Positions 1,265 to 50,824 are shown, counted from the first letter of the stretch. The stretch: DNA of 51,404 nt from Gammaproteobacteria bacterium (GCA_018676275.1 JABHFC010000311.1:1-51404); one strand, 5' to 3'. Numbers and translations are program-made. Notes: generated by a model from the letters alone, not told the origin.

Positions 1265-2671
1265 TTATCCCTGTTTTATTGCAGGATAAACCTGGTTTCT
1301 ACCGGCTTCTTTTGCTGAATATAAAGCCTCATCGGCCTGTTTAACAAGAGCGGAACTATCCATATCTCTGTTGGGAGTTACACAGACTACGCCAAGGCTG
1401 ATGGTGATATATTCATTTACATTGGATTTTTCATGCGGAATTTTTAAAGATTCAATCGCAGAACGAATTTTCTCTGCAACAATTAGAGCCACATTAAGCT
1501 CAGTGTCGGGTAATACAATAACAAACTCCTCACCCCCGTAGCGTGCAGCCAGATCACTACCTTTACGTGATCTGCTTTCTATTGTGATTGCAATATTCTT
1601 TAATACTTCATCCCCTTCAGGATGCCCATAAAAGTCATTATAATTTTTGAAGAAATCGACATCACACAACATCACAGAGATCGGACTTTGGTTTCGAATA
1701 GCCCTTGCCCATGCGTTGGAAAGAAAAGCATCGAACCCTCGTCGATTGGCAATACCTGTTAAAGCATCCTGCACAGTTAATCTGGATAAATCATCTGCCA
1801 AACCCTCAGCTTTGATTTTGGCATCGATTAATTCCTTTTCAGTATCGATGTGATTCTCAATATCCAGTTCCAGCTTCTGGTTCATACCTGCAATTAATTC
1901 TTTTTCCTTTTCTAGTTGACGTAACAATTCAACGTTATCAAATTGCAGATTTACGACCTGTTTCAACATTTTATTGATTCGAAACATGCTGACTGAAAGG
2001 AATGCATAATATACGAGTACCAGTACGCCAAAGGTTCGTAGCGTAGATTCTTCCTGAATTACTAATATGATTCCCAATGGCAACAAAGAAGTGGAAGCAT
2101 AGATCAGATATGCCGGGCGACTAATGGCGTAAGTACCAATTGACCCACCTGCCAGACCGGTGATAACCAGCATTGTCAGGGCAGTATAACCCCGGACTTC
2201 AATGGGCAGAGTTAGCAGTGCAAAGATACCCCATAACAGGCCGGATAATGCAGTTCCTATTAGAAAACGAGTGTTCCAGACAGTATAATTATCGCTACGA
2301 TTACCCGCTTTAAAGTATGCTGTTACCAGCATATAGCGGGCGATATTGAGAACGCTAAAGAAAATTATCCATGGTAGTAAAATAGCCGATGCAGCATGAC
2401 CCCACATGGCGAATATAAAAACCAGAGTGGCTGACTGAGCGGCAAGAATGGAGACCTTCGCCTGATCATAGAGGATCTCGACTTCCTTACCTTTTATAAG
2501 TTGTAACTTGTCTCTGGTATTTTTCTGATTTTTAGATTCCAACTTAAGCCTCAAATACTCATAAATTAAAAACAGGAATAATCCAGCCCTGGATGCTGTA
2601 GCCAGGAATAAGCAGTATATACGGTAAAGGCGAGATCGAGAGCATTTGTTTGTGATAAATTGCCGATGCAT
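1265..2671 (-). CDS. Membrane-anchored diguanylate cyclase (GGDEF domain)
   Basis: 468-aa ORF with an ATG start. The N-terminal ~230 aa carry multiple hydrophobic helices, followed by a coiled-coil linker. The C-terminal GGDEF domain reads DALTGIANRRGFD...ARYGGEEFVIVLP. The usual RxxD inhibitory-site position reads KGSD. Confidence 0.85.
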   Translation of the reverse strand: MHRQFITNKCSRSRLYRIYCLFLATASRAGLFLFLIYEYLRLKLESKNQKNTRDKLQLIKGKEVEILYDQAKVSILAAQSATLVFIFAMWGHAASAILLPWIIFFSVLNIARYMLVTAYFKAGNRSDNYTVWNTRFLIGTALSGLLWGIFALLTLPIEVRGYTALTMLVITGLAGGSIGTYAISRPAYLIYASTSLLPLGIILVIQEESTLRTFGVLVLVYYAFLSVSMFRINKMLKQVVNLQFDNVELLRQLEKEKELIAGMNQKLELDIENHIDTEKELIDAKIKAEGLADDLSRLTVQDALTGIANRRGFDAFLSNAWARAIRNQSPISVMLCDVDFFKNYNDFYGHPEGDEVLKNIAITIESRSRKGSDLAARYGGEEFVIVLPDTELNVALIVAEKIRSAIESLKIPHEKSNVNEYITISLGVVCVTPNRDMDSSALVKQADEALYSAKEAGRNQVYPAIKQG

Positions 2672-19547: not shown

Positions 19548-20573
19548 TTACAGACTGGAACGGATATCATTAATAAAATCAGTGATATCCTGCTCATTTG
19601 TGTTCCATGAACACATCAGGCGGGCACCGCCTTTGGCTATAAAATTGTAATAGCGCCAGCCTTTGTCTTTCAGAGATTTATGCACATGATCGGGAAAGTG
19701 GGCGAATACACCATTTGCTTCAACTGGAGCTACTAATTTGATTTCTGAAAATTGACTTAATTGTTCAGCCAGACTTTGGGCACAATTATTCGCGTGGCGT
19801 GCATGTTTCAGGTAAGTCTTATTTTCCAGCATGCCGACCCAGGGGGCAGACAGAAAACGCATTTTCGACGCAAGTTGCCCGGCCTGCTTACAACGATATT
19901 CAAATTCATAGGCGAGTTCCTTGTTAAAAAATACAACAGCATCACCGACGGGCATTCCGAGTTTTGTACCGCCAAGGCAGAGTACATCTACTCCACATTG
20001 CCAGCTGATTTCTTTGGCAGTTACATCCAGTGAAGCAAGCGCATTAAAAAACCGTGCCCCATCCATATGTAAACGTAAGGATAAGCTTTTCGCCAGTTCG
20101 CCGATGGCTTCGAGATCATCTGTAGTATAAACGGTACCCATTTCTGTTGGTTGAGTAACAGAAATTACTTTCGATTTTGGAAAATGTACGTCGCTTCGTC
20201 GTTGCGCTATATCTTTAACCGCATTCAGATCAATTTTTCCGTTGTCACCACCAGCGAGTAATACCTTTGTGCCATTTGAATAAAATTCTGGTGCGCCACA
20301 TTCGTCCGTTTCGATATGAGCCATTTCATGACAAATAATACTATGATATGACTGGCACATGGACGCCAGTGCCAGCGAATTGGCTGCTGTTCCATTGAAA
20401 GTAAAAAATACTTCGCAATCAGTTTCAAATAATTCACGTATTAAGTCGGATGCCTTCGCAGTCCAGCTATCCTCGCCGTAGCCGGGTTCGTAGCCACTGT
20501 TTGCTGACGCCATGGCAGCCCAGGCTTCTGGAGCAACACTCGCAGTATTATCACTGGCAAAGTTATATTTCAT
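19548..20573 (-). CDS. ltaE: Low-specificity L-threonine aldolase (PLP, beta-eliminating lyase fold)
   Basis: Translation from MKYNFASDNTASVAPEAW...FTFNGTAANSLALA...CLGGTKLGMP (PLP Lys). The ATG at 20573 overlaps the end of the upstream GDH gene by 11 nt. The track's extra 31 N-terminal residues lie inside that gene. Confidence 0.8.
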   Translation of the reverse strand: MKYNFASDNTASVAPEAWAAMASANSGYEPGYGEDSWTAKASDLIRELFETDCEVFFTFNGTAANSLALASMCQSYHSIICHEMAHIETDECGAPEFYSNGTKVLLAGGDNGKIDLNAVKDIAQRRSDVHFPKSKVISVTQPTEMGTVYTTDDLEAIGELAKSLSLRLHMDGARFFNALASLDVTAKEISWQCGVDVLCLGGTKLGMPVGDAVVFFNKELAYEFEYRCKQAGQLASKMRFLSAPWVGMLENKTYLKHARHANNCAQSLAEQLSQFSEIKLVAPVEANGVFAHFPDHVHKSLKDKGWRYYNFIAKGGARLMCSWNTNEQDITDFINDIRSSL

Positions 20574-23500
20574 AATTTCTGGTAAGGAACATTTTAAGTT
20601 TATTGAAGACAACGGACAGCATAGACAGCTCATTGGATTGTGTAAATTGCATTTTGTTGTAGACATCCAGATACTGGTTATATGTATTGGCGTTTTCCTG
20701 TAACCAGAGATATACAGTTTTTACCGGGTCATCGCCGGGATTGTAAAAATCGAGTGTGCTGGCTGTTAAGGCTATATGTAGTTTGTTGAGATCCTGTATA
20801 AAATCAACTCTGGCTCTATCCTGCCAGACATTGTCTGTCGTCAGGCTGTCAGCGTTATTTCGGAGAGAGTATATTTTCAATGATGAATCGAGCTGAAAAA
20901 ACAATTCGATTACAAGATTGATATCAACCGAGTGTTGCCTGGCGAGTTGATTTATTTCCAGGTTAACAATAATTACTCGCAATGTCGCAAAGGTAAACGC
21001 TATACGGGCCGGGATACCCACATCTCGATAACGACGAATTTTCGCATTAATAGTCTTTCTCTCTGCTCCCTTTAGCACTTTGCGTAGTAACAATTTTAAA
21101 GGCTTGATGCCAGAAGAAAACTGCTCAACTGTTTTGGTGACTTCGATCAGGTAACTCTCATTTCGGACAAACCAACGCGTAGCGTGCCTGAGTAAATGCT
21201 GGGTTTCAAATACGAGTTCAGCCTGGTTTTCTACTGATACTTTATGATCAAGTTTGTCGATTTCTTCCCAGAGGCCATGAATATCAAATACATCCCGGGC
21301 GGCAAGAAAGGCCTTGGCGATAACTGCAAGTGATGCGCCGGTTTCATCGGCGAGTCTGTGTGCGAATGTAATGCCAGCGCGGTTGATCATGCTATTGGTC
21401 AGTACCGTGGAGATTATTTCACGGCGCAAAGGATGATCTTCGATGGCATGGGCATACTTTTTCCGCAATTGTGCAGGGAAATAGCGATGTAACATGCCGG
21501 ACAAATAGGGATCATCAGGTAGCTCGGAATCAAGTATTCTGTTGTAAACGGCCGTCTTGGTATGGGCCAGTAATACTGCGATTTCAGGATGGAAAAGACC
21601 TTGCTGTTTTGCTTTACGTTTTTCCAACGTGGCTTGATCAGGAATGTATTCCAGATCTCGAACAAAGGTTTTGCTTTTTTCCAGTTCATTTATTAGTAGC
21701 GCATACCAACCGGGACGAACCGAGCTTTCAATTTCCATCGTGCCGATAACACGTACCTGGCGATAATTGTCCTGTAAAACCAGTTCCGCAACATTGCTGG
21801 TCATACTATGCAAAAGCGCGTTACGTTTTGGCATTGACAACTTTTTATCTGCAACCACTTTATTAAGCAGGATCTTGATATTTACTTCTCGATCAGAACA
21901 ATCAACTCCACCAGAGTTATCAATCCAGTCTGCGTTTACACGCCCATTTTTACATGCAAAAGCAATGCGTGCTCGCTGTGTAAATCCAAGGTTGCCACCC
22001 TCACCGATCACCCTGCAATTGAGTTGCGAACTGTTAATACGAAGATTGTCATTTGACTTATCACCTACGTCCATATTCAGTTCGTCATCTGCTTTTACAT
22101 AGGTACCAATACCTCCGTTCCATAGCAAGTCAACAGGAGCCATCAACAGTGAACGAATCAGTTCATCGGGACTGATTTTGTCAATATCTATTTTCAGTAG
22201 CGCTTTTATCTCACTGGATAAGGAGATTGACTTGGTACTTCTTGGGAAAATACCACCACCGCTGGAAATAAGGTCAGGGTCGTAATCCGACCAGCTTGAA
22301 CGAGGAAGTTCAAACAGACGCTGGCGCTCAACAAAACTGGTTTCTGGATCCGGGCTCGGATCGATAAAAATATGCATGTGATTGAATGCTGCAACCAGTT
22401 TTGTATGTCGGGATAAAAGCATCCCGTTACCAAAAACATCTCCAGCCATGTCGCCAATACCAACGACTGTAAAATCAGTGCTATGTATATCAATACCCAG
22501 AGCCTGGAAGTTATGTTTGACAGATTCCCAGGCTCCACGGGCAGTAATGCCCATTTTTTTGTGGTCATAACCTGCCGAACCTCCAGATGCAAAGGCGTCA
22601 CCAAGCCAGAAGCCATACTCAGCAGAAAGATCATTGGCAATATCGGAAAAAGTTGCGGTACCTTTATCGGCGGCAACTACCAGGTAGGGATCATCATCGT
22701 CGTAGCGTACGACATCAGCAGGAGCAATAATTGTGTTCCCATCCTGGTTGTCCGTAATATCAAGTAAGCCGCGTATGAATATCCTGTAACATTCGATGCC
22801 TTCTTTTTGCAGGGCTTGTCTGTCATTTAAAGGCGCCTGTTTCACATAGAAGCCCCCCTTCGCACCTACCGGAACGATGACGGCGTTTTTTACCATTTGA
22901 GCTTTCATTAAACCAAGCACTTCGGTTCTGAAATCTTCGCGTCTATCGGACCATCTCAGTCCTCCCCTCGCTACTTTTCCGCCACGTAGGTGGACACCCT
23001 CTACCCTGGGCGAATATACAAAGACTTCATATTTGGGATGTGGCAGCGACAGGTCCGGTATTAATTCGGGTAAAACTTTAAGAGACAGGTAATCTTTGAC
23101 GTGACCATACTTGTCTTTTTGATAAAAGTTTGTTCGTAATGTTGCTTTGATAAGATCGTAAAAACGTCGCAAAATTCGATCTTCATCCAGAGATGAAACT
23201 GCATCAAGGCCGGATTCGATATTACGCTGGAGTTTTCTTAACCTGGCGGAATTATCTTTTTTTGATGCATTACCAGGATCAAAACGGGTTGTGAAAAGCG
23301 CAACAAGTAGTTTTGTAATATCCGAATTATGAATAAGTGTATCTTGAACGTAGGTTTCCGAAAAACTGGTGCCAAGTTGTCGAATATACTTTGCATAGGC
23401 TCTTAGTATCATTATTTCCCTGATATTGAGTCCGGCAGATAAGACTAGCCGGTTAAAGCCATCATTTTCTATATTACCATTCCAGATATGCTTAAAGGCT

Positions 23501-25392
23501 TCTTGAAAAATTCCTCTCAAATTAAAAAACGTCGAATTTTCAAGTCCGTGATATTGCATTCCGAAATCATGTAACCAGACAGTACTCTCGCCCTTTTGTC
23601 GAATTTCATAGGGCCGTTCAGATTCAATAAACAAACCCATATTTTCAAGGATTGGTAATACGGTTGAAAGCGGAATAGCATTAACAGGAATGAAAAGCTT
23701 TAACATGAAGTGATTGACGTCAGTATCAAGATCACGATACAAATTTAATGTCAGTCCTTTTTCCTTTAACGCCAGATCAATATACTGGCTATCAAATATT
23801 GCTTCTTCAGCACTGTTATCTTCAATATAAGATGCGGAGAAGGCGTCCTGGTAGCGATGAAAAAAATCAAGACCCTGTTTCCGGTCATATTTCTCCAGAA
23901 AAGATAATTCCAGTTTATCTGCCCAGCTACGGGTGACTTCAGCAACGTCTGCCTCAATTAGCTGCAGATCATATTTGGGTACCGTGCCGGGTTGGGTGTG
24001 AACTACCAGATAAATCTGTGCATAAACAGAATCGGAAATGGATGTAGAGAAATCAACCCCGGTGCCGTTAAAGGCATCTATCAGTATTGACTGGATTCGT
24101 TGCCTGATTACCGAATTAAAACGTTCCTTTGGAACAAAAGCTATACAGGCAAAAAACCTGTCAAAAGGATCTCGGCGGGCAAACAATCCTACCTGGTGTC
24201 TTTCCTGCAGAGAAAGTATGCCCATCGCTGTATTGTATAACTGTTGAACATCAGTCTGGAACAATTCATCACGAGGATAGGTATGCAGAATATTCAGTAG
24301 TGCCTTGCTTGCATGACCGTCAGGGACTAAAGAGGATAGTTTGACGACTTCATTAATCTTGTCTTTAATCAGCGGAATCGTCTGTGGATTACTCATATAA
24401 GCAGATGATGTATAAAGGCCAAGAATTCGGTGTTCCCCAATGACAAGTCCACGCTTGTTGAATTTTTTAATACCGATGTAATCAAGATGAACAGAACGAT
24501 GGACAGTTGAGCGCGAATTAGATTTTGTAATTATCAACATGTCCGTTGACTGGGCATCCCTTTTCACACTTTCAGGCAGGAGATCAAATGATTGTGAGGT
24601 CTTTTTACCCGTGCGTTTTCTGAGAATACCCTTACCGCTACCCGGCACGATATGTAATGAAGCACTTTGTCGAGCTTTGCCTAGTTCATAATCCCTGTAG
24701 CCGAGAAAGACAAAATTATTATCCAGTAACCAACGCAGGAATGCAGAGCTGCGTTTGAGATCGCTTTTCTTGATCGGTGGTGGGAATGACTCAAGGGTTT
24801 CGATAACTTCGGCAAGCCTGTCAGTCATTGGCTTCCTGTCTGAAACAGCTAGTCGGGTGTCTTCCAGTATCCGATCCAGGCAACTGGCAAGATTTTTCAA
24901 TTTGTCCTTGTTGTGTTCTTTGTCCACCTCCATGTAGATGAAGGATTCAAACATAAAACTGTCGACCTCGGACGAAAACGGGATGACATTATTTATCTTT
25001 TTTTGTCTGTCACGCTGAATCTCTAACAAGGGGTGTATGGTGAGATTAATGGCGTAGCCGAGCCTGTGTAATTCCATCATCACAGAGTCGACCAGGAAAG
25101 GTGTATTTGCTGTTACGATTTGAATAATAGTGTGCTTAGATTCCCAGCCATGCTCTTCCTTGTCAGGATTGAATACACGAATTATCCTGTGTCCCCTGGT
25201 CCATGATCGGGCAAGTTCAAAATGACTCCTGGCACTACACGCAAGGTTCTGAGTACTACGGTCAACCAGATCGTAAACGGGAACACCAGCGAAATAGCTG
25301 CGCACAAACGTCGACATTTGCCTGGAAATATTTTTTGCTAATCCCTTAGTTGCTTGCCTGGCGATATTATTAATTTTATTTTTCGTGGGCAT
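20563..25392 (-). CDS. gdhB: NAD-specific glutamate dehydrogenase, large (~180 kDa) class
   Basis: 1609 aa. The catalytic core reads GGLRWSDRREDFRTEVLGLMKAQMVKNAVIVPVGAKGGF...VVAADKGTATFSD...GITARGAWESV. The length and flanking helical domains are typical of bacterial large NAD-GDH. Confidence 0.9.
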   Translation of the reverse strand: MPTKNKINNIARQATKGLAKNISRQMSTFVRSYFAGVPVYDLVDRSTQNLACSARSHFELARSWTRGHRIIRVFNPDKEEHGWESKHTIIQIVTANTPFLVDSVMMELHRLGYAINLTIHPLLEIQRDRQKKINNVIPFSSEVDSFMFESFIYMEVDKEHNKDKLKNLASCLDRILEDTRLAVSDRKPMTDRLAEVIETLESFPPPIKKSDLKRSSAFLRWLLDNNFVFLGYRDYELGKARQSASLHIVPGSGKGILRKRTGKKTSQSFDLLPESVKRDAQSTDMLIITKSNSRSTVHRSVHLDYIGIKKFNKRGLVIGEHRILGLYTSSAYMSNPQTIPLIKDKINEVVKLSSLVPDGHASKALLNILHTYPRDELFQTDVQQLYNTAMGILSLQERHQVGLFARRDPFDRFFACIAFVPKERFNSVIRQRIQSILIDAFNGTGVDFSTSISDSVYAQIYLVVHTQPGTVPKYDLQLIEADVAEVTRSWADKLELSFLEKYDRKQGLDFFHRYQDAFSASYIEDNSAEEAIFDSQYIDLALKEKGLTLNLYRDLDTDVNHFMLKLFIPVNAIPLSTVLPILENMGLFIESERPYEIRQKGESTVWLHDFGMQYHGLENSTFFNLRGIFQEAFKHIWNGNIENDGFNRLVLSAGLNIREIMILRAYAKYIRQLGTSFSETYVQDTLIHNSDITKLLVALFTTRFDPGNASKKDNSARLRKLQRNIESGLDAVSSLDEDRILRRFYDLIKATLRTNFYQKDKYGHVKDYLSLKVLPELIPDLSLPHPKYEVFVYSPRVEGVHLRGGKVARGGLRWSDRREDFRTEVLGLMKAQMVKNAVIVPVGAKGGFYVKQAPLNDRQALQKEGIECYRIFIRGLLDITDNQDGNTIIAPADVVRYDDDDPYLVVAADKGTATFSDIANDLSAEYGFWLGDAFASGGSAGYDHKKMGITARGAWESVKHNFQALGIDIHSTDFTVVGIGDMAGDVFGNGMLLSRHTKLVAAFNHMHIFIDPSPDPETSFVERQRLFELPRSSWSDYDPDLISSGGGIFPRSTKSISLSSEIKALLKIDIDKISPDELIRSLLMAPVDLLWNGGIGTYVKADDELNMDVGDKSNDNLRINSSQLNCRVIGEGGNLGFTQRARIAFACKNGRVNADWIDNSGGVDCSDREVNIKILLNKVVADKKLSMPKRNALLHSMTSNVAELVLQDNYRQVRVIGTMEIESSVRPGWYALLINELEKSKTFVRDLEYIPDQATLEKRKAKQQGLFHPEIAVLLAHTKTAVYNRILDSELPDDPYLSGMLHRYFPAQLRKKYAHAIEDHPLRREIISTVLTNSMINRAGITFAHRLADETGASLAVIAKAFLAARDVFDIHGLWEEIDKLDHKVSVENQAELVFETQHLLRHATRWFVRNESYLIEVTKTVEQFSSGIKPLKLLLRKVLKGAERKTINAKIRRYRDVGIPARIAFTFATLRVIIVNLEINQLARQHSVDINLVIELFFQLDSSLKIYSLRNNADSLTTDNVWQDRARVDFIQDLNKLHIALTASTLDFYNPGDDPVKTVYLWLQENANTYNQYLDVYNKMQFTQSNELSMLSVVFNKLKMFLTRNYEI

Positions 25393-25456: not shown

Positions 25457-28400
25457 CTAAATTGCTAATAATGACGCATTACCGCCGATCGCTGATGTAT
25501 TGACCGTATAAACTTGTTCGTTGGCAAATCGAAACAGATAGTTTGGGCCGCCTGCCTTTGGTCCGGTACCGGATAGGCCACAACCGCCAAAGGGCTGCAC
25601 GCCAACAACCGCCCCAATCATATTTCGGTTAACATAAACGTTGCCTACTTTAACACGTTCAAGAATATCACTGGCACGATTTTCGATACGGCTGTGTATG
25701 CCCAGTGTTAAGCCATAGCCAATGGCATTTATCTCATTCAGCACATTATCGAGTTCTACCGATTTATACCTGATCACATGCAGCACTGGCCCGAAATTTT
25801 CATTTTCAAGTTGCGCAATGTTATCAATCTCAATGACCACAGGTGCTATAAAACTCCCTCCACTTAACTCTTCTGGAATATGGCATCGGTGAATGACATT
25901 GCCATGCTTACTAATACTCTCAATATGTGTTTCTAATAATTGTTGCGCTTGCTGATCTATTACGGGTCCAATATCGGTGCTTAGGTATAAGGGATCACCG
26001 ATGACGAGTTCGTCCATATAACCTTTTAATAACGTGAGTATTTCATCGGCAATTTCTTCCTGAAGATAAAGTACACGTAATGCAGAACATCGTTGTCCAG
26101 CGCTGTTAAATGCTGACTGAACTACATCCAGAACCACTTGCTGCGGTAAAGCGGAACTGTCTACGAGCATGGTATTTTGTCCACCGGTCTCTGCGATCAG
26201 GGTGGCAATTGAACCCTCGCGCAGAGCCAGAGTCCGGTTAATTAATTTTGCGGTATCACATGATCCGGTAAATGCGACACCGGCGATTCTTGGATCGGAT
26301 AATAATGTCTCCCCGATTTGTTTTCCATCTCCCGGTAAAAAGTGCAGGGCAGACGAAGGGGTACCAGCTTCCAATAATAATTGTGTTACATAATGTGCCA
26401 CCAGTGATGTTTGTTCAGCTGGTTTTGCAATCACGGTATTTCCGGCCGCCAGCGCTGCCGCTATCTGACCGGTAAATATGGCAAGCGGAAAATTCCAGGG
26501 ACTGATACAAACAAATACTCCGCGACCCTGAAGAGCCAGTTCATTTTTTTCTCCGGTCGGTCCATTTAATTTTATCTTTTTGCTGAAATGTTTTTTCGCA
26601 AGCCCAGCATAGTAGCGGAGGAAATCAACGGCTTCGCGAAATTCACCGTGACTATCAATAACAGTCTTACCTGCTTCTCTCACACACATTGCGATCAGAG
26701 TTGCCTGATGTTGTTCAAAGATATCCGCTGCCTTGTTTAGAATTTCGGCACGATATTTTGCTGGTGTCGCATTCCACTCAGGCCAGGCCCGGCTGGCAAT
26801 ATCAACGGCGCTAAGTATATCTTTTTGTCGTGTACAGAAAACCTGACCAAGGGGCTGCGCATTTGCTGGGTTATATATCTGACATTTAACTCCGCTCAGG
26901 CTTTTACCGTTTATAATCGGGCTGGCATCCCATCTTTGGTCAAGTGTTGCGTTTATCTGCTCGTGCAAAGGATCAACTTCATTCGCATCAGAAAAATTAA
27001 TCCCGGGTGAGTTTAAACGTTGATTACCAAATATATTAGCTGGAAGTGGGATCCTGGGATGCTTTATTTCATTACCTAAACTCTCTACGATGAGTACAGG
27101 GTCGGTATTTATATCGTTATTCATTGATTCTTCGTGAGCCATTTGATTGACAAAGGATGTATTAGCTCCGTTTTCCAGCAAACGTCGAACCAGGTAGGGG
27201 AGCAAGTCTTCGTGCTTACCTACAGGGGCATAAACTCGACATGGAATATTGAGTTTGTCCTTATCAGTAACTTCTTCATAAAGTTCTTCACCCATACCGT
27301 GTAGTCGCTGAAACTCATATTCGCGAGTACCGGCATGATGATAAACATAGGCCAACGTCTGCGCGTTATGAGTGGCAAACTGAGGATAAATTGAATGGCA
27401 CTCTTCCAGTAAATAGCGAGCGCAGGCCTGGTAGGACACATCGGTATTACACTTGCGGGTAAAAACAGGATAACCAGAGAGTCCTTGTTCCTGAGCATGT
27501 TTAATCTCCGTATCCCAATATGCACCCTTAACCAGACGTAAAGGAATTATTCTGTTATTTCGCTGTGCCAGTTGATTCAGCCACTTTATTATCGGCAAAG
27601 CACGCTTTTGATAGGCCTGTACTACCAGCCCGAAACCATTCCAGTTTTCCATGTCTGCTGACAGAAAAACCTTTTCGAAAATTATTAATGACATTTCAAG
27701 TCGGTCTGCTTCTTCTGCATCTACTGTCAGACCGATCCCCTGATTCTGTGCAAGCCTGGCCAGTTCCAACAGTCGTTGTGACAACTCACTAATTGCTCGT
27801 TCCTTTTGCGTATATTCATAACGGGGACAAAGAGCTGAAAGTTTTATTGAAATTCCGGGTCGTGAAACCTCAGGTAATTCGGTATCAACGGAAGCGCCAA
27901 TTTTTTCTATCGCAATGGCATATGCCTGTTGATAAGCTTCAGCATCACCAGTAGTGATTGCAGCTTCTCCGAGCATATCGAATGAATAACGATAGTGTCT
28001 GTTTTCGGTAGAACGGGATCGTTTCAGTGCTTCGGAAATTGATCTACCCATTACAAACTGCCAGGCCATGATACGCATCGCGCTTTTCATGGCTGCACGT
28101 ACCACTGGTTCTTCCATGCGTGCGAATAGTTTGCTGATGTACTGCTTTGGGTTTTTTATCGCTGCCTTTTGTGGTTTTAGCGTTTGACCCGTCAACATTA
28201 ATGCCCAGGTAGAAGCATTGACAAAAAGTGAGTGACTTTCACCCAGATGTTTATCCCAGCTTGCTGAAGACAGTTTGTCGGAGATTAGTGCGTCCATTGT
28301 TTCATTGTCGGGAATACGTAGCAGGGCTTCTGCTATGCACATCAGAATAACGCCTTCCTGAGAAGATAGATCGTAATGATTTAGAAAAGCCTGCAGCCCT

Positions 28401-28651
28401 GAGGCCTGCTGTTGTTCGTTACGAATAGTTTTTATTAAATTCGCCGCCGTATTTTGAATTTTGATTGAATGTGCTTTTGATGCGCGCGCATGGGCTAGTA
28501 AATTTTTTACAACGCTGTTTTCATCCTCCAGGTAGTTGTTCGCAATGTATTCGTGAAGGGGGTGAAATTGTGAATTTTGAGAGCTCATTTCAGTATCTTC
28601 TTGTGTCAGTTTTTCCCTATTCACAGCCGGAATCCGGGATTGGATAAGCAT
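25457..28651 (-). CDS. putA: Bifunctional proline dehydrogenase / L-glutamate-gamma-semialdehyde dehydrogenase
   Basis: 1064 aa. The PRODH barrel (RYSFDMLGEAA, VKGAYWD) is followed by an ALDH domain (FVCISPWNFPLAIF, ETGGQNTMLVD, GQRCSALR). I see no ribbon-helix-helix N-terminus. The start could instead be MSSQNS at 28588. Confidence 0.9.
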   Translation of the reverse strand: MLIQSRIPAVNREKLTQEDTEMSSQNSQFHPLHEYIANNYLEDENSVVKNLLAHARASKAHSIKIQNTAANLIKTIRNEQQQASGLQAFLNHYDLSSQEGVILMCIAEALLRIPDNETMDALISDKLSSASWDKHLGESHSLFVNASTWALMLTGQTLKPQKAAIKNPKQYISKLFARMEEPVVRAAMKSAMRIMAWQFVMGRSISEALKRSRSTENRHYRYSFDMLGEAAITTGDAEAYQQAYAIAIEKIGASVDTELPEVSRPGISIKLSALCPRYEYTQKERAISELSQRLLELARLAQNQGIGLTVDAEEADRLEMSLIIFEKVFLSADMENWNGFGLVVQAYQKRALPIIKWLNQLAQRNNRIIPLRLVKGAYWDTEIKHAQEQGLSGYPVFTRKCNTDVSYQACARYLLEECHSIYPQFATHNAQTLAYVYHHAGTREYEFQRLHGMGEELYEEVTDKDKLNIPCRVYAPVGKHEDLLPYLVRRLLENGANTSFVNQMAHEESMNNDINTDPVLIVESLGNEIKHPRIPLPANIFGNQRLNSPGINFSDANEVDPLHEQINATLDQRWDASPIINGKSLSGVKCQIYNPANAQPLGQVFCTRQKDILSAVDIASRAWPEWNATPAKYRAEILNKAADIFEQHQATLIAMCVREAGKTVIDSHGEFREAVDFLRYYAGLAKKHFSKKIKLNGPTGEKNELALQGRGVFVCISPWNFPLAIFTGQIAAALAAGNTVIAKPAEQTSLVAHYVTQLLLEAGTPSSALHFLPGDGKQIGETLLSDPRIAGVAFTGSCDTAKLINRTLALREGSIATLIAETGGQNTMLVDSSALPQQVVLDVVQSAFNSAGQRCSALRVLYLQEEIADEILTLLKGYMDELVIGDPLYLSTDIGPVIDQQAQQLLETHIESISKHGNVIHRCHIPEELSGGSFIAPVVIEIDNIAQLENENFGPVLHVIRYKSVELDNVLNEINAIGYGLTLGIHSRIENRASDILERVKVGNVYVNRNMIGAVVGVQPFGGCGLSGTGPKAGGPNYLFRFANEQVYTVNTSAIGGNASLLAI

Positions 28652-28744: not shown

Positions 28745-29245
28745 ATGGAAAATACGAAATATAATCTAATGATGGATTCATCCTCTCATAAGCTCGATCG
28801 TATTGACCTTCACATTCTCAGGGTTTTGCAGCTTAATGGTCGTATCTCCAATGTAGAACTGTCGCAGAAAGTTAATTTAAGCCCGGCGCCTTGCCTGGTT
28901 CGGGTTAAAAGACTAGAGCAGGAAGGTATCATCCAGCGTTATCGCGCAGAGCTGGATCCTGTCAAGCTAGGCTTTGGATTGCTCGCCTTTGTTGAGGTCA
29001 CGCTCGATCGCACTACACCGGATGTGTTTGATAAATTTAAACAGGCTGTGCAAACAATCGACGAAATTGAAGAGTGTCACATGGTTGCAGGTGGTTTTGA
29101 TTACCTGATAAAAATACGTTGTATAGATATGGATGCATATCGGCGCATACTCGGTGAAAAGATCGCTACTGTTAATGGTATCTCACAAACTCACACTTAT
29201 GTTGTTATGGAACAGGTGAAGAGTAGTAACGAACTCAATATTTAG
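28745..29245 (+). CDS. Lrp/AsnC-family transcriptional regulator, divergent from putA
   Basis: 166 aa. The HTH reads LDRIDLHILRVLQLNGRISNVELSQKVNLSPAPCLVRVKRLEQEGII, followed by an RAM/AsnC_trans_reg domain. It shares a 93-nt AT-rich intergenic region with putA. Confidence 0.85.
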   Translation: MENTKYNLMMDSSSHKLDRIDLHILRVLQLNGRISNVELSQKVNLSPAPCLVRVKRLEQEGIIQRYRAELDPVKLGFGLLAFVEVTLDRTTPDVFDKFKQAVQTIDEIEECHMVAGGFDYLIKIRCIDMDAYRRILGEKIATVNGISQTHTYVVMEQVKSSNELNI

Positions 29246-29269: not shown

Positions 29270-30466
29270 ATGAACAAGGCTAAATCCTATATTGGACAAT
29301 CGGTAGGTCGATACACATTTAATGAGTTAGTCGGTAAGGGCTCGATTGGAGCCGTGTATAAAGCTTTTGACCAACGTCTGTTGCGTCCAGTCGCAATCAA
29401 AGTCTCTTCTCCTCATGCTGGCAATGAAGCCACACCAAATGATCGTATTTTACGTGAAGCACAAATTGTCGCGCGTGTTGAACACGCTAATATTGTTCCA
29501 ATATATGATGTCGTTGATCATGAAGGATCGGTTTTGATCGTTATGCGTTTATTGAAAGGACGGAATCTTGATGAACTCAAACAGCTTGTTGGCAAGCCTC
29601 TTGACGTCAATGAGGCTTTAAAAATAATGCACCAGGTAATGCTGGGAATGGATTACGCTCACAGCCGTGGCGTTATCCATGCTGATCTAAAACCGGGAAA
29701 TATTTTTGTTTCCAGTTCTAATGAGATTTTCATTCTTGATTTTGGCCTCGCGGCTGTACTCGAACTGGAAAAACCGGACAAAAGTAAAATGTACGGGACA
29801 CCTTTGTATATGTCACCTGAGCAATGTAATGGTATTTATCATGATGCCCGATCTGATATTTACTCACTTGGCCTTATCTTTTATGCGCTGATTACCGGTA
29901 GACACCCTTTTGCTGATGCTCAGTCAATGCAACAACTTTTGTTGTTTCAAATGGAGAAAATACCGGAAAGACCTGACGAAATTAACCCGGCAGTACCTGA
30001 GAACCTGTCTAATTGTGTTATGAGGGCTCTGGATAAAGATCCAACCAGGCGATTTAATTCATGTAGAGATTTTTTCCGTAAAATTGAAAGCTCATTGCAG
30101 ATTGTTGATACAGGGGAGTATAAGATTAAGGATTTGCGATGGGATCCGCGTGTAAATATGAATTTGCAGGCTCAACTGCAATTGCAAGATAGTGAAGAAA
30201 TATACACTGCTGAAATTACCGATCTATCTGTTAGTGGCGCCAGCATTCTGGTTCCGGTTTCTCTAAAATCTGGAACAAAGCTAAAAATTGATTTTGATAT
30301 CATGGAAGACAACAACCATGTGACAATGTCGAGTCAGGCTACAGTTTTATGGGAAGACAAAAAATCAGGTATGCAAATGTTTGAAGCCGGGTTAAGTTTC
30401 GATAGTCTTGAGAACCTGGATAAGCAATACCTTGGCTTTTATATACGTAATCGATTATTAGCCTGA
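29270..30466 (+). CDS. Ser/Thr protein kinase (Hanks type) fused to a C-terminal PilZ domain
   Basis: Kinase motifs: GKGSIGAVY (Gly loop), VAIKV (Lys), HADLKPGN (catalytic loop, non-RD), DFGLA, GTPLYMSPE. C-terminal ~110 aa: RWDPR (RxxxR), then 23 residues, then DLSVSG (DxSxxG), which are the two c-di-GMP-binding PilZ signatures. Confidence 0.8.
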   Translation: MNKAKSYIGQSVGRYTFNELVGKGSIGAVYKAFDQRLLRPVAIKVSSPHAGNEATPNDRILREAQIVARVEHANIVPIYDVVDHEGSVLIVMRLLKGRNLDELKQLVGKPLDVNEALKIMHQVMLGMDYAHSRGVIHADLKPGNIFVSSSNEIFILDFGLAAVLELEKPDKSKMYGTPLYMSPEQCNGIYHDARSDIYSLGLIFYALITGRHPFADAQSMQQLLLFQMEKIPERPDEINPAVPENLSNCVMRALDKDPTRRFNSCRDFFRKIESSLQIVDTGEYKIKDLRWDPRVNMNLQAQLQLQDSEEIYTAEITDLSVSGASILVPVSLKSGTKLKIDFDIMEDNNHVTMSSQATVLWEDKKSGMQMFEAGLSFDSLENLDKQYLGFYIRNRLLA

Positions 30467-31864: not shown

Positions 31865-32302
31865 ATGAAGCAACTCGGTGATAGCGATCAGCAACTCATC
31901 TCTCTTTTACAGGCAAATGCGCGCGAATCCGTCAGTAACCTGGCAAGAAAGTTGGGTGTCTCTCGAACTGCAATTCAGGAAAGGATGAACAAATTGCAGC
32001 GAAACGGTGTGATCGAAGGATATACGGTCAAATTAAACCCGGACTGGATGGCAGAGCAAATAAAGGCTTTTGTTTCCATGGAAGTTGAGCCAAAGCATTC
32101 TGCGAAAGTGATTGCAGCTTTACAAAAGATGACGCCGGTTCAGGCTCTGTGGTCAGTCAGTGGACGTATCGACGTGCTTATTCTCGTTCGCACTTCAACA
32201 ACTGCTGAAATTGATCGCCTGCTTGATGAGATTGGTGCAATTGATGGCATTACACGAACAGAGTCGTCAGTTGTTCTAACCTCCAGGGTTAACAGTTTTT
32301 AA
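31865..32302 (+). CDS. Lrp/AsnC-family transcriptional regulator, divergent from the decarboxylase
   Basis: 145 aa. LGDSDQQLISLLQANARESVSNLARKLGVSRTAIQERMNKLQRNGVI plus a RAM domain. A GGGGAG ribosome-binding site lies upstream. Confidence 0.85.
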   Translation: MKQLGDSDQQLISLLQANARESVSNLARKLGVSRTAIQERMNKLQRNGVIEGYTVKLNPDWMAEQIKAFVSMEVEPKHSAKVIAALQKMTPVQALWSVSGRIDVLILVRTSTTAEIDRLLDEIGAIDGITRTESSVVLTSRVNSF

Positions 32303-37413: not shown

Positions 37414-38730
37414 TTAATCGTCTACGTGGATAAAAACGTACTCCGTCTTTGAGCCTGTGAAACTGATGATATCACCTGCCTGTACTTCCTCTGTATGTTG
37501 AGTTTGCCGGCCGTTTACAAATACAGCGAGCTCTCCATTAGTTTGTAACTTTACTTTCCCTTTCTGCTGGCTTACACAACAATGACCGGTAGAAGCATCA
37601 TCTATGCTGATAAGACCTGAAGCTGACAAATACACAGGACCTTCATGTAAAGCAAAAGCATTATGGCCATGTAAAATATGTGTAATGTTTTGTCCGGTGG
37701 AGTTTACAGTCCCGGTGTTTTCCAGATTTTGTTTCGGAGTCTCTGTAATTACAGGACTGCTTGTTGCTGGCAGGCTGGTAACGTAATTTGACCCAGAACC
37801 AGCAGAACGAATACTTTCCGCGTGAATCATGCAGGTTTCAAAAATATTGCTGGCCGGCAATATTTGCGCTTCATTTAATGAGTTTGTAAAGCCTGGTAGT
37901 TGTCCTGTTTGATTACTTATAAGGCAGCTATCATTGGCGTCTATAGCATCGGCAATTTTGTTATACAAAGGTTGCAGAACGTGCAACAGAGATTCGCGGG
38001 ATAGTTTTGCCTGGTGCTGGGTTTGCTGATACTGAATTTCCAGTGACACTTCGGAAAGAGTTTGCAGCGAATTCAGACAGGTCGGGATCTGATCATACAA
38101 GGCCTGCTCCGTCTCCGGATGATGCTGAGGATCAAAACGTGATTCTTTAATAAACAGATCGGCAATCAGGTGTGCGGTAGTGTCGTATATGGATGCCAGC
38201 CCGGCACCATCTATGGGGTGTACTGCGCCACGAACCACCTGATCAGTGACGCTAATTCTGGTTAATATCGTTTGATGTAAATGTGTATCAATATAAACGT
38301 AGTTTCCTTTCCCTGCAGTTGGCGCGACTGCAGCAATCGCAGAATCGACAAGCCCTACTATTGTTAAGGGACTTGCTTCAACAAGACCGAGCAAAAGGGC
38401 AAGTTGATCATTGCTGTAGGAGCCGGGTACAGCAATTATGACTTCTTCAGGTTTTCCTGCCTGATCATAGATTGCGAGTAGTTGAGCAAACGCGAGATCA
38501 GCATTATGTCGCGCATGAGTGCCCGGATATTGCAGCGGTTCCTGATTCAGATTTTTCCAGTACTTGTTATGTACAGCTCGAGGTTGAAGACGAGCCTGTC
38601 TGGCAGCAACTGAGCCTAACTCAATTTTATCTTTATCGATAAAAGCGTAACCGGGACTGCGTAAAACAACCTCCTTACCCTTTCCTACGCGGATTTCAAC
38701 ATCGTTCAGTTCAATAACACTGATTGTCAT
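37414..38730 (-). CDS. Cytoplasmic degenerate Hsp70/actin-fold (ASKHA)-like protein with an FHA-like C-terminal domain
   Basis: 438 aa with no TM helix. It is collinear with the DnaK nucleotide-binding domain but lacks the phosphate-binding signatures. VIELNDVEIRV sits in place of GIDLGTTNS. AVPGSYSNDQLALLLGLVEASPLTIVGLVDSAIAAV resembles TVPAYFNDAQRQAT..AG..V.RIINEPTAAA. YVYIDTHLHQTILTRISV sits in place of DLGGGTFDVS. The tail VSQQKGKVKLQTNGELAVFVNGRQ...VQAGDIISFTG is FHA-like but lacks the canonical SxxH. Confidence 0.5.
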   Translation of the reverse strand: MTISVIELNDVEIRVGKGKEVVLRSPGYAFIDKDKIELGSVAARQARLQPRAVHNKYWKNLNQEPLQYPGTHARHNADLAFAQLLAIYDQAGKPEEVIIAVPGSYSNDQLALLLGLVEASPLTIVGLVDSAIAAVAPTAGKGNYVYIDTHLHQTILTRISVTDQVVRGAVHPIDGAGLASIYDTTAHLIADLFIKESRFDPQHHPETEQALYDQIPTCLNSLQTLSEVSLEIQYQQTQHQAKLSRESLLHVLQPLYNKIADAIDANDSCLISNQTGQLPGFTNSLNEAQILPASNIFETCMIHAESIRSAGSGSNYVTSLPATSSPVITETPKQNLENTGTVNSTGQNITHILHGHNAFALHEGPVYLSASGLISIDDASTGHCCVSQQKGKVKLQTNGELAVFVNGRQTQHTEEVQAGDIISFTGSKTEYVFIHVDD

Positions 38731-39784: not shown

Positions 39785-41875
39785 TCACTCCAGGTACCGT
39801 GCAATACGAAAGCCGACATCATCGCGTTGCTTGGCATTATAGTCTCTGTATGACAAACGCAATTCGGTGACCGTTCCATGTGCCCAACTTGAACCCCTGA
39901 TCACGTGGAATTTACCAGTGTCGGGACCAAGGGGGTCAACTTCAGCTTTGTCAGTCGCTCCCAGTTGTATGTCGTAAAAGTCATTAACCCATTCTGCCAC
40001 ATTACCACCCATATCAAACAGACCTCTTTGGTTCGCAGGGAAACTACCAATCGGTGCGGAAACCATATGGCCATCATTGTAGTTACCAATTATTTTCCCC
40101 AGAAATCCAGCTGAAGAGGTATCGGCATAATTGCCGCTTTTTTTCGTAGGCGGTAATTGTTCTCCCCATGGATATTTCAACAAACTATTCTTGCCAGTAA
40201 CACGTGCTGACCAGGCCCATTCTGCTTCGGTTGGTAGTCGATACCCATTTGCCGAACGGTTGACACCACTTATTTTTTTATTTATTTCCTTATAGAAAGG
40301 CTCCAAAGATTCGGCTTTGCTTAACCAGTTACAATATGCCACTGCCTGTTCCCAGCTGACTTTCACCACAGGTTGTTTTTCCCCGTCCAGATTATTTCCC
40401 TGGACAGTGCCAGAGACATGACTTGCAGCATACTTTCTATATTGCTCATTACTAACCTCATGAGTACCGAGGTAAAAAGGGCGTTTCAAATCAATTTTGC
40501 GGAGGGTTTCATTGGCACGTCGGCCAGGTTCACGACGTGATGCGCCCATCGTAAATGCGGTTGGATGAAATAGTTTTAGAGTCTGTCCTGCGGTATTTGT
40601 ATAAATCGGCTTTATCTTTTCCAGTTTTGCCTGCCGATCACTTTTCAGGCTGACATTTACTTTCTCAGCAATACCGGCATGCGGTGATATTTTTGTTTTG
40701 AAGCTGACATAACCTGGTTTGCGAACTTCAATGCGATGTGGTTTGGCAGAAAGTTCCAGAACCTGATTTGCTTTATCTTTGGCAACACCATCTATAAATA
40801 GCTTCGCATCCTTTGGAGTAATATTAAATTCAACTTTTACCAGTTCCGGTGCAAGCTTGACGATTAGACGTTTTTCTTCACCGGAGTTAACACTTATTTT
40901 GCGGCTTGCAGATCTATAGCCCTGTTTAAAAAGGCGTATGGTACTTTCCTTGCCTGGTTTCAGCGCGAATTCAAGTGGCGTTAAGCCCTTGTATTCTCCA
41001 TCTGCTGTAGCATTGGCCCGGGGAGGATCTGATACAAGGAATAGCACGGCATCAACAGGTTGCAGTTTTACATCAGTCAATTCTAATGATTCGTTTGCAA
41101 CGACATTTATTTTATCCTGCCAAAGCTTAAAACCGGAAAGTTTAATTCCTATTTCATGATTGCCTTCAAGGATTTCAGCGTTAAATGGAGTTTGCCCCAG
41201 TAACTCACCATCCAGGAAAATATCTGCACCTTGTGGGTCTGAATCCATCGTTACTTCTGCCCAGGCAGGAACCAACTCAGTTGTGAAGCTTTGCTCTTTG
41301 TCCAGTCCTTCAATTATCAATTGCTGTTCAAATGGGAAATAACGTTCTGCGACAATACGCAATTGATGTTCGCCCGCTTCAATATCATGAATCAGTGAAG
41401 GTGTCCGTCCCGATAAGACATCATCAATAAATATCTCTGCGTCAGTCACTTTACCTGTCTGTACCTGCAGATGTCCGGGCAGGCGTTTCAGATCAAAGCT
41501 GAAACGTTGGTTTTGCTCCGTACTTATTGACAGGTTTTGACTCAGAGGATGATAGCCTTCAGCTTTGAGCATTAGATCATGTTCGCCTGAGATAAGCAGA
41601 TATCGGTCAGCCAGTTTCAATTTGAACAGGCTGCCAATTTTAATTTCGGCATTAACAGGATTGGTTTCGATATAGACGGCTTTTGCTGTAAACAGAAAGA
41701 CAGCCGTTGTCGCACAAATAAGAAAACCACTGATAATGAGAATAGTCTTACGGCTGATTTCAAATGATACAGCAGGCTTGTTTCCACTCAATGGTTCAAA
41801 TTTTACCGGTGCAATAGTTTCTGTACCGGCAGGTGGTGCCGTTGTATTTTTTTCGTTGTTATTATTGTTATCCAT
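39785..41875 (-). CDS. TM-anchored multi-PEGA-repeat protein with a C-terminal FGE-sulfatase (SUMF1-like) domain
   Basis: The ATG is at 41875; the track's first codon is a TTG. There is one TM helix (ILIISGFLICATTAVFLFTA). About 5 PEGA-like repeats follow (for example ADIFLDGELLGQTPF...LEGNHEIGIKLSGF, AKLFIDGV...HRIEVRKPGY). The FGE-sulfatase domain reads FTMGA, VKVSWEQAVAYCNWLS, YRLPTEAEWAWSAR, YPWG, GLFDMGGNVAEWVNDFY, IRGSSW...DVGFRIAR. No Cys is present where the catalytic FGE cysteines sit. Confidence 0.8.
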   Translation of the reverse strand: MDNNNNNEKNTTAPPAGTETIAPVKFEPLSGNKPAVSFEISRKTILIISGFLICATTAVFLFTAKAVYIETNPVNAEIKIGSLFKLKLADRYLLISGEHDLMLKAEGYHPLSQNLSISTEQNQRFSFDLKRLPGHLQVQTGKVTDAEIFIDDVLSGRTPSLIHDIEAGEHQLRIVAERYFPFEQQLIIEGLDKEQSFTTELVPAWAEVTMDSDPQGADIFLDGELLGQTPFNAEILEGNHEIGIKLSGFKLWQDKINVVANESLELTDVKLQPVDAVLFLVSDPPRANATADGEYKGLTPLEFALKPGKESTIRLFKQGYRSASRKISVNSGEEKRLIVKLAPELVKVEFNITPKDAKLFIDGVAKDKANQVLELSAKPHRIEVRKPGYVSFKTKISPHAGIAEKVNVSLKSDRQAKLEKIKPIYTNTAGQTLKLFHPTAFTMGASRREPGRRANETLRKIDLKRPFYLGTHEVSNEQYRKYAASHVSGTVQGNNLDGEKQPVVKVSWEQAVAYCNWLSKAESLEPFYKEINKKISGVNRSANGYRLPTEAEWAWSARVTGKNSLLKYPWGEQLPPTKKSGNYADTSSAGFLGKIIGNYNDGHMVSAPIGSFPANQRGLFDMGGNVAEWVNDFYDIQLGATDKAEVDPLGPDTGKFHVIRGSSWAHGTVTELRLSYRDYNAKQRDDVGFRIARYLE

Positions 41876-41983
41876 CAAATTATGACTCTTTAATAATCTG
41901 GTAATGAATCAGATAGAATTTCATACTTATAGTGACGGAATCTGCAGGTCCATCATGACTTCTCTATCCCTGCAAAACAGACC

Positions 41984-50359: not shown

Positions 50360-50824
50360 ATGAAATTAGATAAGACTGATCGTGCCATTCTTCATGTCCT
50401 GCAATTAGACGGGCGATTGAGTAATGTCAATCTGGCCCACAAGGTGAATTTATCGGAGTCCGCTTGTCTGAGAAGAGTTAAATTACTGGAGGGTGCAGGC
50501 GTAATTGAGCGCTATTCGATGCTGGTGAACCAGGCTGCTGTTGGCTTGCCCGGAAATGTATTCGTGGAAATCAGTTTGGCCCAGCAACAACAGGAAGAAC
50601 TGGATACCTTTGAAAAACGAGTGTTGGAGATACCGGAGGTAATGGAATGTTACCTGATGTCCGGTGACTATGATTACTTGTTACGCGTGGTAGTCGCAGA
50701 TGCCGCCGATTATGAGCGCATCCATCATCAACATTTAACCCGTTTGCCTGGTATCGCCAAGGTAAGGTCAAGTTTTGCATTACGCACGGTAACCAAGGCT
50801 CAGGAACTGCCAATTAAACATTAG
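50360..50824 (+). CDS. Lrp/AsnC-family transcriptional regulator, divergent from ald
   Basis: 154 aa. LDKTDRAILHVLQLDGRLSNVNLAHKVNLSESACLRRVKLLEGAGVI plus a RAM domain. The ald-Lrp divergent pairing is a common arrangement. Confidence 0.85.
   Translation: MKLDKTDRAILHVLQLDGRLSNVNLAHKVNLSESACLRRVKLLEGAGVIERYSMLVNQAAVGLPGNVFVEISLAQQQQEELDTFEKRVLEIPEVMECYLMSGDYDYLLRVVVADAADYERIHHQHLTRLPGIAKVRSSFALRTVTKAQELPIKH

Follow-up and report, generated by a model that had tools for sequence, protein, structure and literature searches.

A predicted non-RD Hanks-type kinase fused to a canonical PilZ domain in uncultured Gammaproteobacteria is a candidate for direct control by c-di-GMP

Introduction

The fusion of a Hanks-type Ser/Thr kinase with a PilZ domain is known from Pkn1 of M. 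xanthus and recurs in several lineages. Pkn1 carries kinase and PilZ in one chain and is needed for normal sporulation (PMC8316039, PMC8844925). [quoted passage not shown] The same work reported for PlpA that the presence of the PilZ motifs did not guarantee c-di-GMP binding (PMC8316039, PMC8844925). Among kinases, a 2025 review of c-di-GMP effectors covers the histidine kinase CckA only. In the literature searched, a response to c-di-GMP has not been shown for any Hanks-type kinase.

PilZ domains bind c-di-GMP by means of two motifs, RxxxR and D/NxSxxG. The RxxxR segment is a flexible arm closing over the ligand against the barrel face that carries [D/N]xSxxG. YcgR and PP4397 are examples of PilZ proteins with two domains, whose mutual orientation changes upon this closure. 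MapZ docks on CheR1, and MotI as well as YcgR dock on the flagellar motor. The targets of the c-di-GMP effectors recognized so far comprise transcription factors, glycosyltransferases, motors, ATPases, and the histidine kinase CckA.

Here, we analyzed a kinase-PilZ gene within a stretch of 51,404 nucleotides from a Gammaproteobacteria bacterium (GCA_018676275.1, JABHFC010000311.1:1-51404), in the following referred to as the window. An earlier note on this DNA had proposed that the output of the encoded kinase may be gated directly by c-di-GMP.

Results

Domain composition of the kinase-PilZ protein

The gene is located at 29270..30466 on the plus strand (stop codon included) and is open throughout, encoding 398 aa from an ATG start. 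Its assignment as a Ser/Thr kinase-PilZ fusion is based on the ORF itself, on Pfam and on ~75 homologous clusters, and the start codon is backed by the N-termini of homologues, which match at MNKAKSYIG. The HMM searches proposed in the earlier note placed both families above their curated cut-offs. Pkinase (PF00069) covers residues 15-263 (29312..30058, plus strand) with 179.2 bits against a cut-off of 31.7 (E 1.4e-52), and PilZ (PF07238) covers residues 290-392 with 47 bits against a cut-off of 22.5 (E 3.5e-12), spanning profile positions 3-100 of 102. The earlier reading had been made dependent on the C-terminal domain matching PilZ profiles, which it does at the given E value, and this domain was recovered again in a six-frame genome search. 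In combination with the structure models, the PilZ domain extends over residues 290-398 (30137..30463, plus strand), consisting of a beta-barrel and a C-terminal helix at residues 382-397.

Further Pfam matches (ABC1, RIO1, APH, and Kdo) represent kinase-like families overlapping the kinase stretch, and no additional Pfam domain was found in the protein. Hydropathy analysis did not reveal any TM segment, the maximum Kyte-Doolittle mean over 19 residues being 1.48; thus, the claim of a protein free of TM segments and other sensor domains could be upheld. NCBIfam offers no dedicated model. Its generic kinase models match the kinase part only and stay far below their cut-offs, the best of them being the PknB/Stk1 model.

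Conservation of the catalytic and ligand positions

Conservation was determined from 65 aligned members sharing 34-89% identity with the window protein. All core kinase motifs named in the earlier note were located at the positions claimed, namely G22-K-G-S-I-G27, V41-A-I-K44, H137-A-D-L-K-P-G-N144, D157-F-G, and S182-P-E184, and the alignment allowed their evaluation on family level. In all 65 members, K44, E63, H137, D139, K141, N144, D157, F158, T177, P178, P183, E184, D196, and R261 are retained. The same applies to G22 and G24 of the Gly-loop, with its third glycine G27 present in 59 and the DFG glycine G159 in 63 of the 65 sequences. Thereby, the Hanks subdomain set is represented by the Gly-loop, the ATP-anchoring VAIK lysine K44 (codon at 29399..29401, plus strand), the alphaC glutamate E63, the HxD..N loop, DFG, PE, D196 of subdomain IX, and R261 of subdomain XI. 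A pseudokinase reading was considered and discarded on the grounds of these intact and invariant catalytic residues.

The catalytic loop (H137 to N144; 29678..29701, plus strand), in which P142 is invariant along with H137, D139, K141, and N144, reads HAD in the window protein, from which a non-RD kinase had been deduced. Position 138 in the middle of HxD is occupied by L in 29, S in 14, Q in 11, A in 6, C in 2, K in 2, and F in 1 of the members. Since arginine never occurs at this site, the deduction holds and, as read from the alignment, the non-RD state extends to the family as a whole. The segment from DFG via the activation loop to the P+1 loop and SPE (residues 157-184; 29738..29821, plus strand) has a DFG-to-PE length of exactly 27 residues in every one of the 65 sequences. 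Within the activation loop, the GT threonine T177 is the only conserved Ser/Thr, and this lack of any other conserved acceptor argues against phosphorylation of the loop as the switch, as far as can be judged from the alignment.

Both PilZ signatures were confirmed at proper spacing, R290-W-D-P-R294 (30137..30151, plus strand) being followed, 24 residues after R294, by D318-L-S-V-S-G323 (30221..30238, plus strand). R294, S320, and G323 are strictly conserved (65/65), R290 is found in 64 and W291 in 62 members, and position 318 is N in 41, D in 19, and S in 5, i.e., D/N in 60 of 65. The mean column conservation of the whole PilZ domain is only 0.52. In its C-terminal helix, R393 is invariant and a [VI]RNxLL motif is conserved. 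The interdomain linker (residues 264-289; 30059..30136, plus strand) combines low sequence conservation (mean 0.44) with a nearly fixed length: the distance from R261 to R290 amounts to 29 residues in 57 of the 65 members and ranges from 28 to 31 overall.

Structure models

The full-length AF2 model, calculated with the 65-row alignment, reached a pLDDT of 87.7 and a pTM of 0.89. Because the pTM is so high for a two-domain chain, the model suggests that kinase and PilZ domain are packed in a defined mutual orientation. Low confidence was restricted to residues 1-3, 50-53, and 169-172 in the activation loop (the latter with pLDDT <50) as well as to the stretch directly before R290, with a mean pLDDT of 54 at residues 281-290. 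AF2 and Foldseek agree on a predicted bilobal protein-kinase fold. In Foldseek, the kinase part matches the kinase domain of PknB best (6i2p; E 6.7e-20, TM (target) 0.83, rmsd 3.1), followed by PknI and PknE of M. tuberculosis with E values to ~1e-16 and 27-30% identity across PknB, PknE, and PknI.

A separate AF2 model of the PilZ part (residues 280-398) had a pLDDT of 87 and comprised six strands and a helix at model residues 103-118. All of the best 45 Foldseek matches of this model in the PDB belong to PilZ proteins, the majority of which were solved in complex with c-di-GMP. They include MotI (5vx6) as closest match (TM 0.78), BcsA, Alg44, MapZ, VCA0042, YcgR, MrkH, and PlzA. On sequence level, the single PilZ sequence gave no meaningful match against PDB sequences, and a profile built from seven PilZ sequences matched MotI/YpfA (E 5.7e-5). 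Both motifs were aligned in this comparison, RxxxR with RRQYVR and [D/N]xSxxG with NISAGG of MotI.

Family size, distribution and subfamilies

From 5.8 billion proteins, a word-indexed search retrieved ~75 clusters (90% identity) with both domains and lengths of 394-471 aa, ranging from 89% down to ~35% identity to the window protein. All of them originate from uncultured bacteria, mostly Gammaproteobacteria, and no cultured organism is among the sources. Where a name is given, the proteins are annotated as "serine/threonine protein kinase"; the MAGs they derive from carry the labels Gammaproteobacteria, Thiotrichaceae, or Pseudomonadota, and Myxococcota in the case of one cluster. A family-profile search of protein representatives was dominated by proteins with multiple kinase domains and contained at least 7 full-length representatives of ~400 aa at the 50% identity level. 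When the PilZ region alone was used as query, only 7 close relatives were recovered.

When the search was extended to 40 related genomes, full-length copies turned up in three of five further genomes from the same genus, with an identity of only ~54%, and in one of 19 further genera belonging to the same family; therefore, the distribution is patchy in the genomes searched. A scan of genome contigs for related loci with the single protein found nothing, and an alignment-based contig scan, which used kinase-motif patterns, returned generic kinases only.

In a maximum-likelihood tree, the window protein falls into a clade of 23 short members (support 100/100), i.e., this protein and its 22 closest relatives end without a C-terminal tail. 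Most members outside this clade carry a tail of ~20 residues after the PilZ helix with the consensus D-E-L-P-[ST]-[ED]-R-T-x-T-[FY] (P0026-P0054, e.g., L083:6001-7239). This tail could be an autophosphorylation or a pseudosubstrate site.

Genomic neighborhood

The kinase gene is surrounded by genes of amino-acid catabolism. Directly upstream on the same strand lies a gene for an Lrp/AsnC-family regulator (28745..29245, plus strand; Pfam), divergent from putA and separated from the kinase ATG by a gap of 24 nt in which no terminator-like site was found. Judged by this arrangement, both genes are probably co-transcribed. On the 3' side, a gene resembling ornithine/DAP decarboxylases and a second Lrp regulator are oriented convergently. 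Upstream of the kinase locus, a NAD-glutamate dehydrogenase of 1609 aa (20563-25392, minus strand) and a PutA of trifunctional type with DNA-binding domain (25457-28651, minus strand) form a tandem, which is ordinary amino-acid catabolism. In total, three Lrp/AsnC regulators are encoded in the window (28745-29245, 31865-32302, and 50360-50824), each adjoining a gene of amino-acid catabolism, i.e., putA, the ornithine/DAP-decarboxylase-like gene, and alanine dehydrogenase, respectively.

Comparison with six homologous loci and four more found by tblastn showed that the Lrp and ornithine-decarboxylase-like neighbors are kept only in the relatives of 89% and 73% identity. The 89% relative preserves the arrangement of the window. 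In the 73% relative, the Lrp gene is broken into two frames (L084:5460-5984) and of putA only a C-terminal remnant of 56 residues is left, with the kinase-PilZ gene as well as the decarboxylase and Lrp genes downstream of it being intact. Persistence of the kinase gene at a locus where Lrp and putA have decayed indicates that selection acts on the kinase itself. The more distant members are found next to lpt and ccm genes, a photolyase, a Tle1-like lipase, SET-domain genes, or a YcgR-like PilZ gene with a GGDEF gene. No recurrent neighbor, phosphatase, or FHA protein was present at the homologous loci inspected. The kinase-PilZ protein behaves as a stand-alone module. A conserved neighborhood as clue to substrate or partner was discarded, given that the neighbors differ beyond the 89% and 73% relatives; consequently, neither substrate nor partner can be read from the context.

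Other signaling genes in the window

The earlier note had linked the kinase to two further genes of the window. One of them, the GGDEF cyclase at 1265..2671 (minus strand), proved to be real, being a membrane-anchored protein with a GGDEF match of E 5.8e-54 and an intact GGEEF active site. The functional link to the kinase did not stand, as both genes are 27 kb apart and unlinked. Possession of a GGEEF diguanylate cyclase gene implies that the organism is probably able to make c-di-GMP. The N-terminal half of the GGDEF protein is hydrophobic and multi-pass. Where the RxxD inhibitory site is usually located, the protein reads KGSD; hence, product feedback inhibition may be absent.

The second gene had been described as coding for an FHA-like domain 7 kb away from the kinase. 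This could not be confirmed: the respective ORF of 438 aa (37414-38730, minus strand) gave no FHA signal in sequence-based searches, matching neither a Pfam family nor a PDB sequence at E<=1, and no Pfam match to FHA was obtained for the ORFs searched between 33.9 and 47.2 kb. In this region, a protein of 697 aa (39785-41878, minus strand) combines four PEGA repeats with a C-terminal FGE-sulfatase-like domain, its gene being part of a VWA / MotA-ExbB / TPR / TonB_C operon. For the kinase homologue P0117, the precomputed Pfam annotation likewise includes the FGE-sulfatase family (PF03781).

Discussion

Proposed mechanism

Judged by its sequence, the window protein is a soluble, predicted catalytically competent non-RD kinase of the Hanks type, and a canonical C-terminal PilZ domain is its only regulatory module. 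We consider it fairly probable that binding of c-di-GMP to this domain controls the output of the kinase. The earlier note's reading is partly supported and represents the best-supported interpretation, because architecture, motifs, and non-RD status could be verified and the predicted fold is that of c-di-GMP-binding PilZ domains. From these data, binding of the ligand is inferred, as are the existence of a regulation, its direction, and its target.

According to the model we propose, c-di-GMP would be enclosed by RxxxR on one side and the barrel face with [D/N]xSxxG on the other. RxxxR is located at the end of a flexible linker of fixed length that exits the kinase C-lobe, and for this reason ligand binding should move the barrel against the kinase. 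Ordering of the linker upon binding would shift the PilZ barrel and the C-terminal helix with its invariant R393 relative to the kinase, and this shift would in turn switch the output, either as catalytic activity or as substrate access. The movement might act on catalysis, on oligomerisation, or on the docking of partners. This linker-switch step is proposed in analogy to PilZ proteins of the YcgR/PP4397 type. As the HRD arginine is absent and no conserved phospho-acceptor is present in the activation loop, control would be exerted by such a ligand switch rather than by activation-loop phosphorylation.

Alternative readings

A related scenario, which we regard as rather unlikely, leaves the catalytic rate untouched: the kinase would be constitutively active, and the c-di-GMP-bound PilZ domain would dock it on a target or site and thereby set whom it phosphorylates. 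The uniformly non-RD family fits this scenario, non-RD kinases often having no need for an activation step. So does the closest structural match MotI, a PilZ protein binding to the motor, and so does the C-terminal helix with its invariant R393 and conserved [VI]RNxLL motif, the more so as Galperin and Chou singled out this PilZ helix as protein-interaction surface, as in MapZ-CheR1 (10.1101/814665). However, no conserved neighboring gene suggests a partner, and a coupling within the molecule would suit the fixed linker length and the high pTM at least equally well. More improbable still is a PilZ domain that does not bind c-di-GMP and serves as a ligand-independent structural, dimerisation, or interaction domain, a role that is predicted for the one in Pkn1 and has been reported for the one in PlpA. 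In its favor, the motifs are reported not to have guaranteed binding in PlpA, and Pkn1 to be functional without them (PMC8316039, PMC8844925). Against it stand the predicted fold, shared with ligand-binding PilZ domains and with both motifs aligned to MotI, and the four key ligand positions, which are invariant or nearly so in 65 members while the remaining domain drifts. Such a conservation pattern is hard to account for without the ligand.

One might also read the protein as a defence kinase of the PD-T4-6 / Stk2 type, which would protect against phages as a single gene and sense infection through its C-terminal domain. PADLOC models of PD-T4-6 do match residues 12-283, with E values down to 1.2e-74, and the NCBIfam models MAD6 and PglW match weakly. 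Yet, the PADLOC matches are confined to the generic kinase domain (residues about 9-292), those of NCBIfam are far below the cut-offs, and the supposed sensor is a canonical PilZ domain. In addition, the gene is situated among putA, Lrp, and the ornithine-decarboxylase-like gene instead of in a defence island, in an arrangement that is syntenic in close relatives. We judge this a poor reading and its being correct as very unlikely.

Implications

Returning to control of the kinase by c-di-GMP, it is quite possible, and put forward tentatively, that the members of this family represent the first Hanks-type Ser/Thr kinases switched directly by c-di-GMP via a fused PilZ domain. If true, they would connect the second-messenger network directly with Ser/Thr phosphorylation in free-living marine Gammaproteobacteria and, at the same time, provide a minimal model of 400 aa for the ligand control of a non-RD kinase. 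Genuine gating would link two major bacterial signaling systems and would show how allosteric control of a non-RD kinase can work. If gating were absent, the protein would join PlpA and Pkn1 as a case of PilZ being used other than for ligand sensing. The protein is a convenient test case, being a single soluble polypeptide with no membrane part and with clear point mutants at hand (K44, R290/R294, and S320). The uncultured status of the organism limits in vivo work. While the kinase-PilZ architecture as such is not new, the present analysis adds the family-wide non-RD state, the fixed lengths of linker and activation loop, the division into short and tailed subfamilies, the absence of any conserved partner, and the fold evidence.

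Comparison with known systems

In terms of fold, canonical spacing of the motifs, and C-terminal helix, the PilZ part of the window protein resembles the canonical PilZ proteins MotI/DgrA (5vx6), BcsA, Alg44, MapZ, and YcgR, with MotI/DgrA of B. subtilis being the fold match of TM 0.78. The outputs of these proteins are a glycosyltransferase, a flagellar motor component, or a methyltransferase partner, and none of them drives a fused Hanks kinase. The kinase part has its best structural matches in PknB, PknE, and PknI of M. tuberculosis, which are membrane receptor kinases with extracellular sensors, PknB being an RD kinase activated by phosphorylation of its activation loop. In contrast, the window protein is soluble and non-RD, as predicted from its sequence, and without conserved phospho-acceptors in this loop.

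The combination of both domains is shared by P0114 and P0119, two proteins of ~530 aa with an HRD kinase and a C-terminal PilZ domain, in which RxxxR and DxSxxG are intact as in the window protein. They are not close relatives, their identity of 34-38% to the window protein being confined to the kinase domain, and P0114 differs from the window family in its architecture by an additional receiver domain between kinase and PilZ. The only studied example of the STK-PilZ pairing is Pkn1, compared here by its published description. Like Pkn1, the window protein unites an N-terminal Hanks kinase and a C-terminal PilZ domain in one soluble polypeptide. Unlike in Pkn1, both PilZ motifs are intact and conserved throughout the window family, whose members are furthermore distinguished by a compact size of ~400 aa, a linker of ~26 residues, a uniformly non-RD kinase domain, and their origin from uncultured Gammaproteobacteria.
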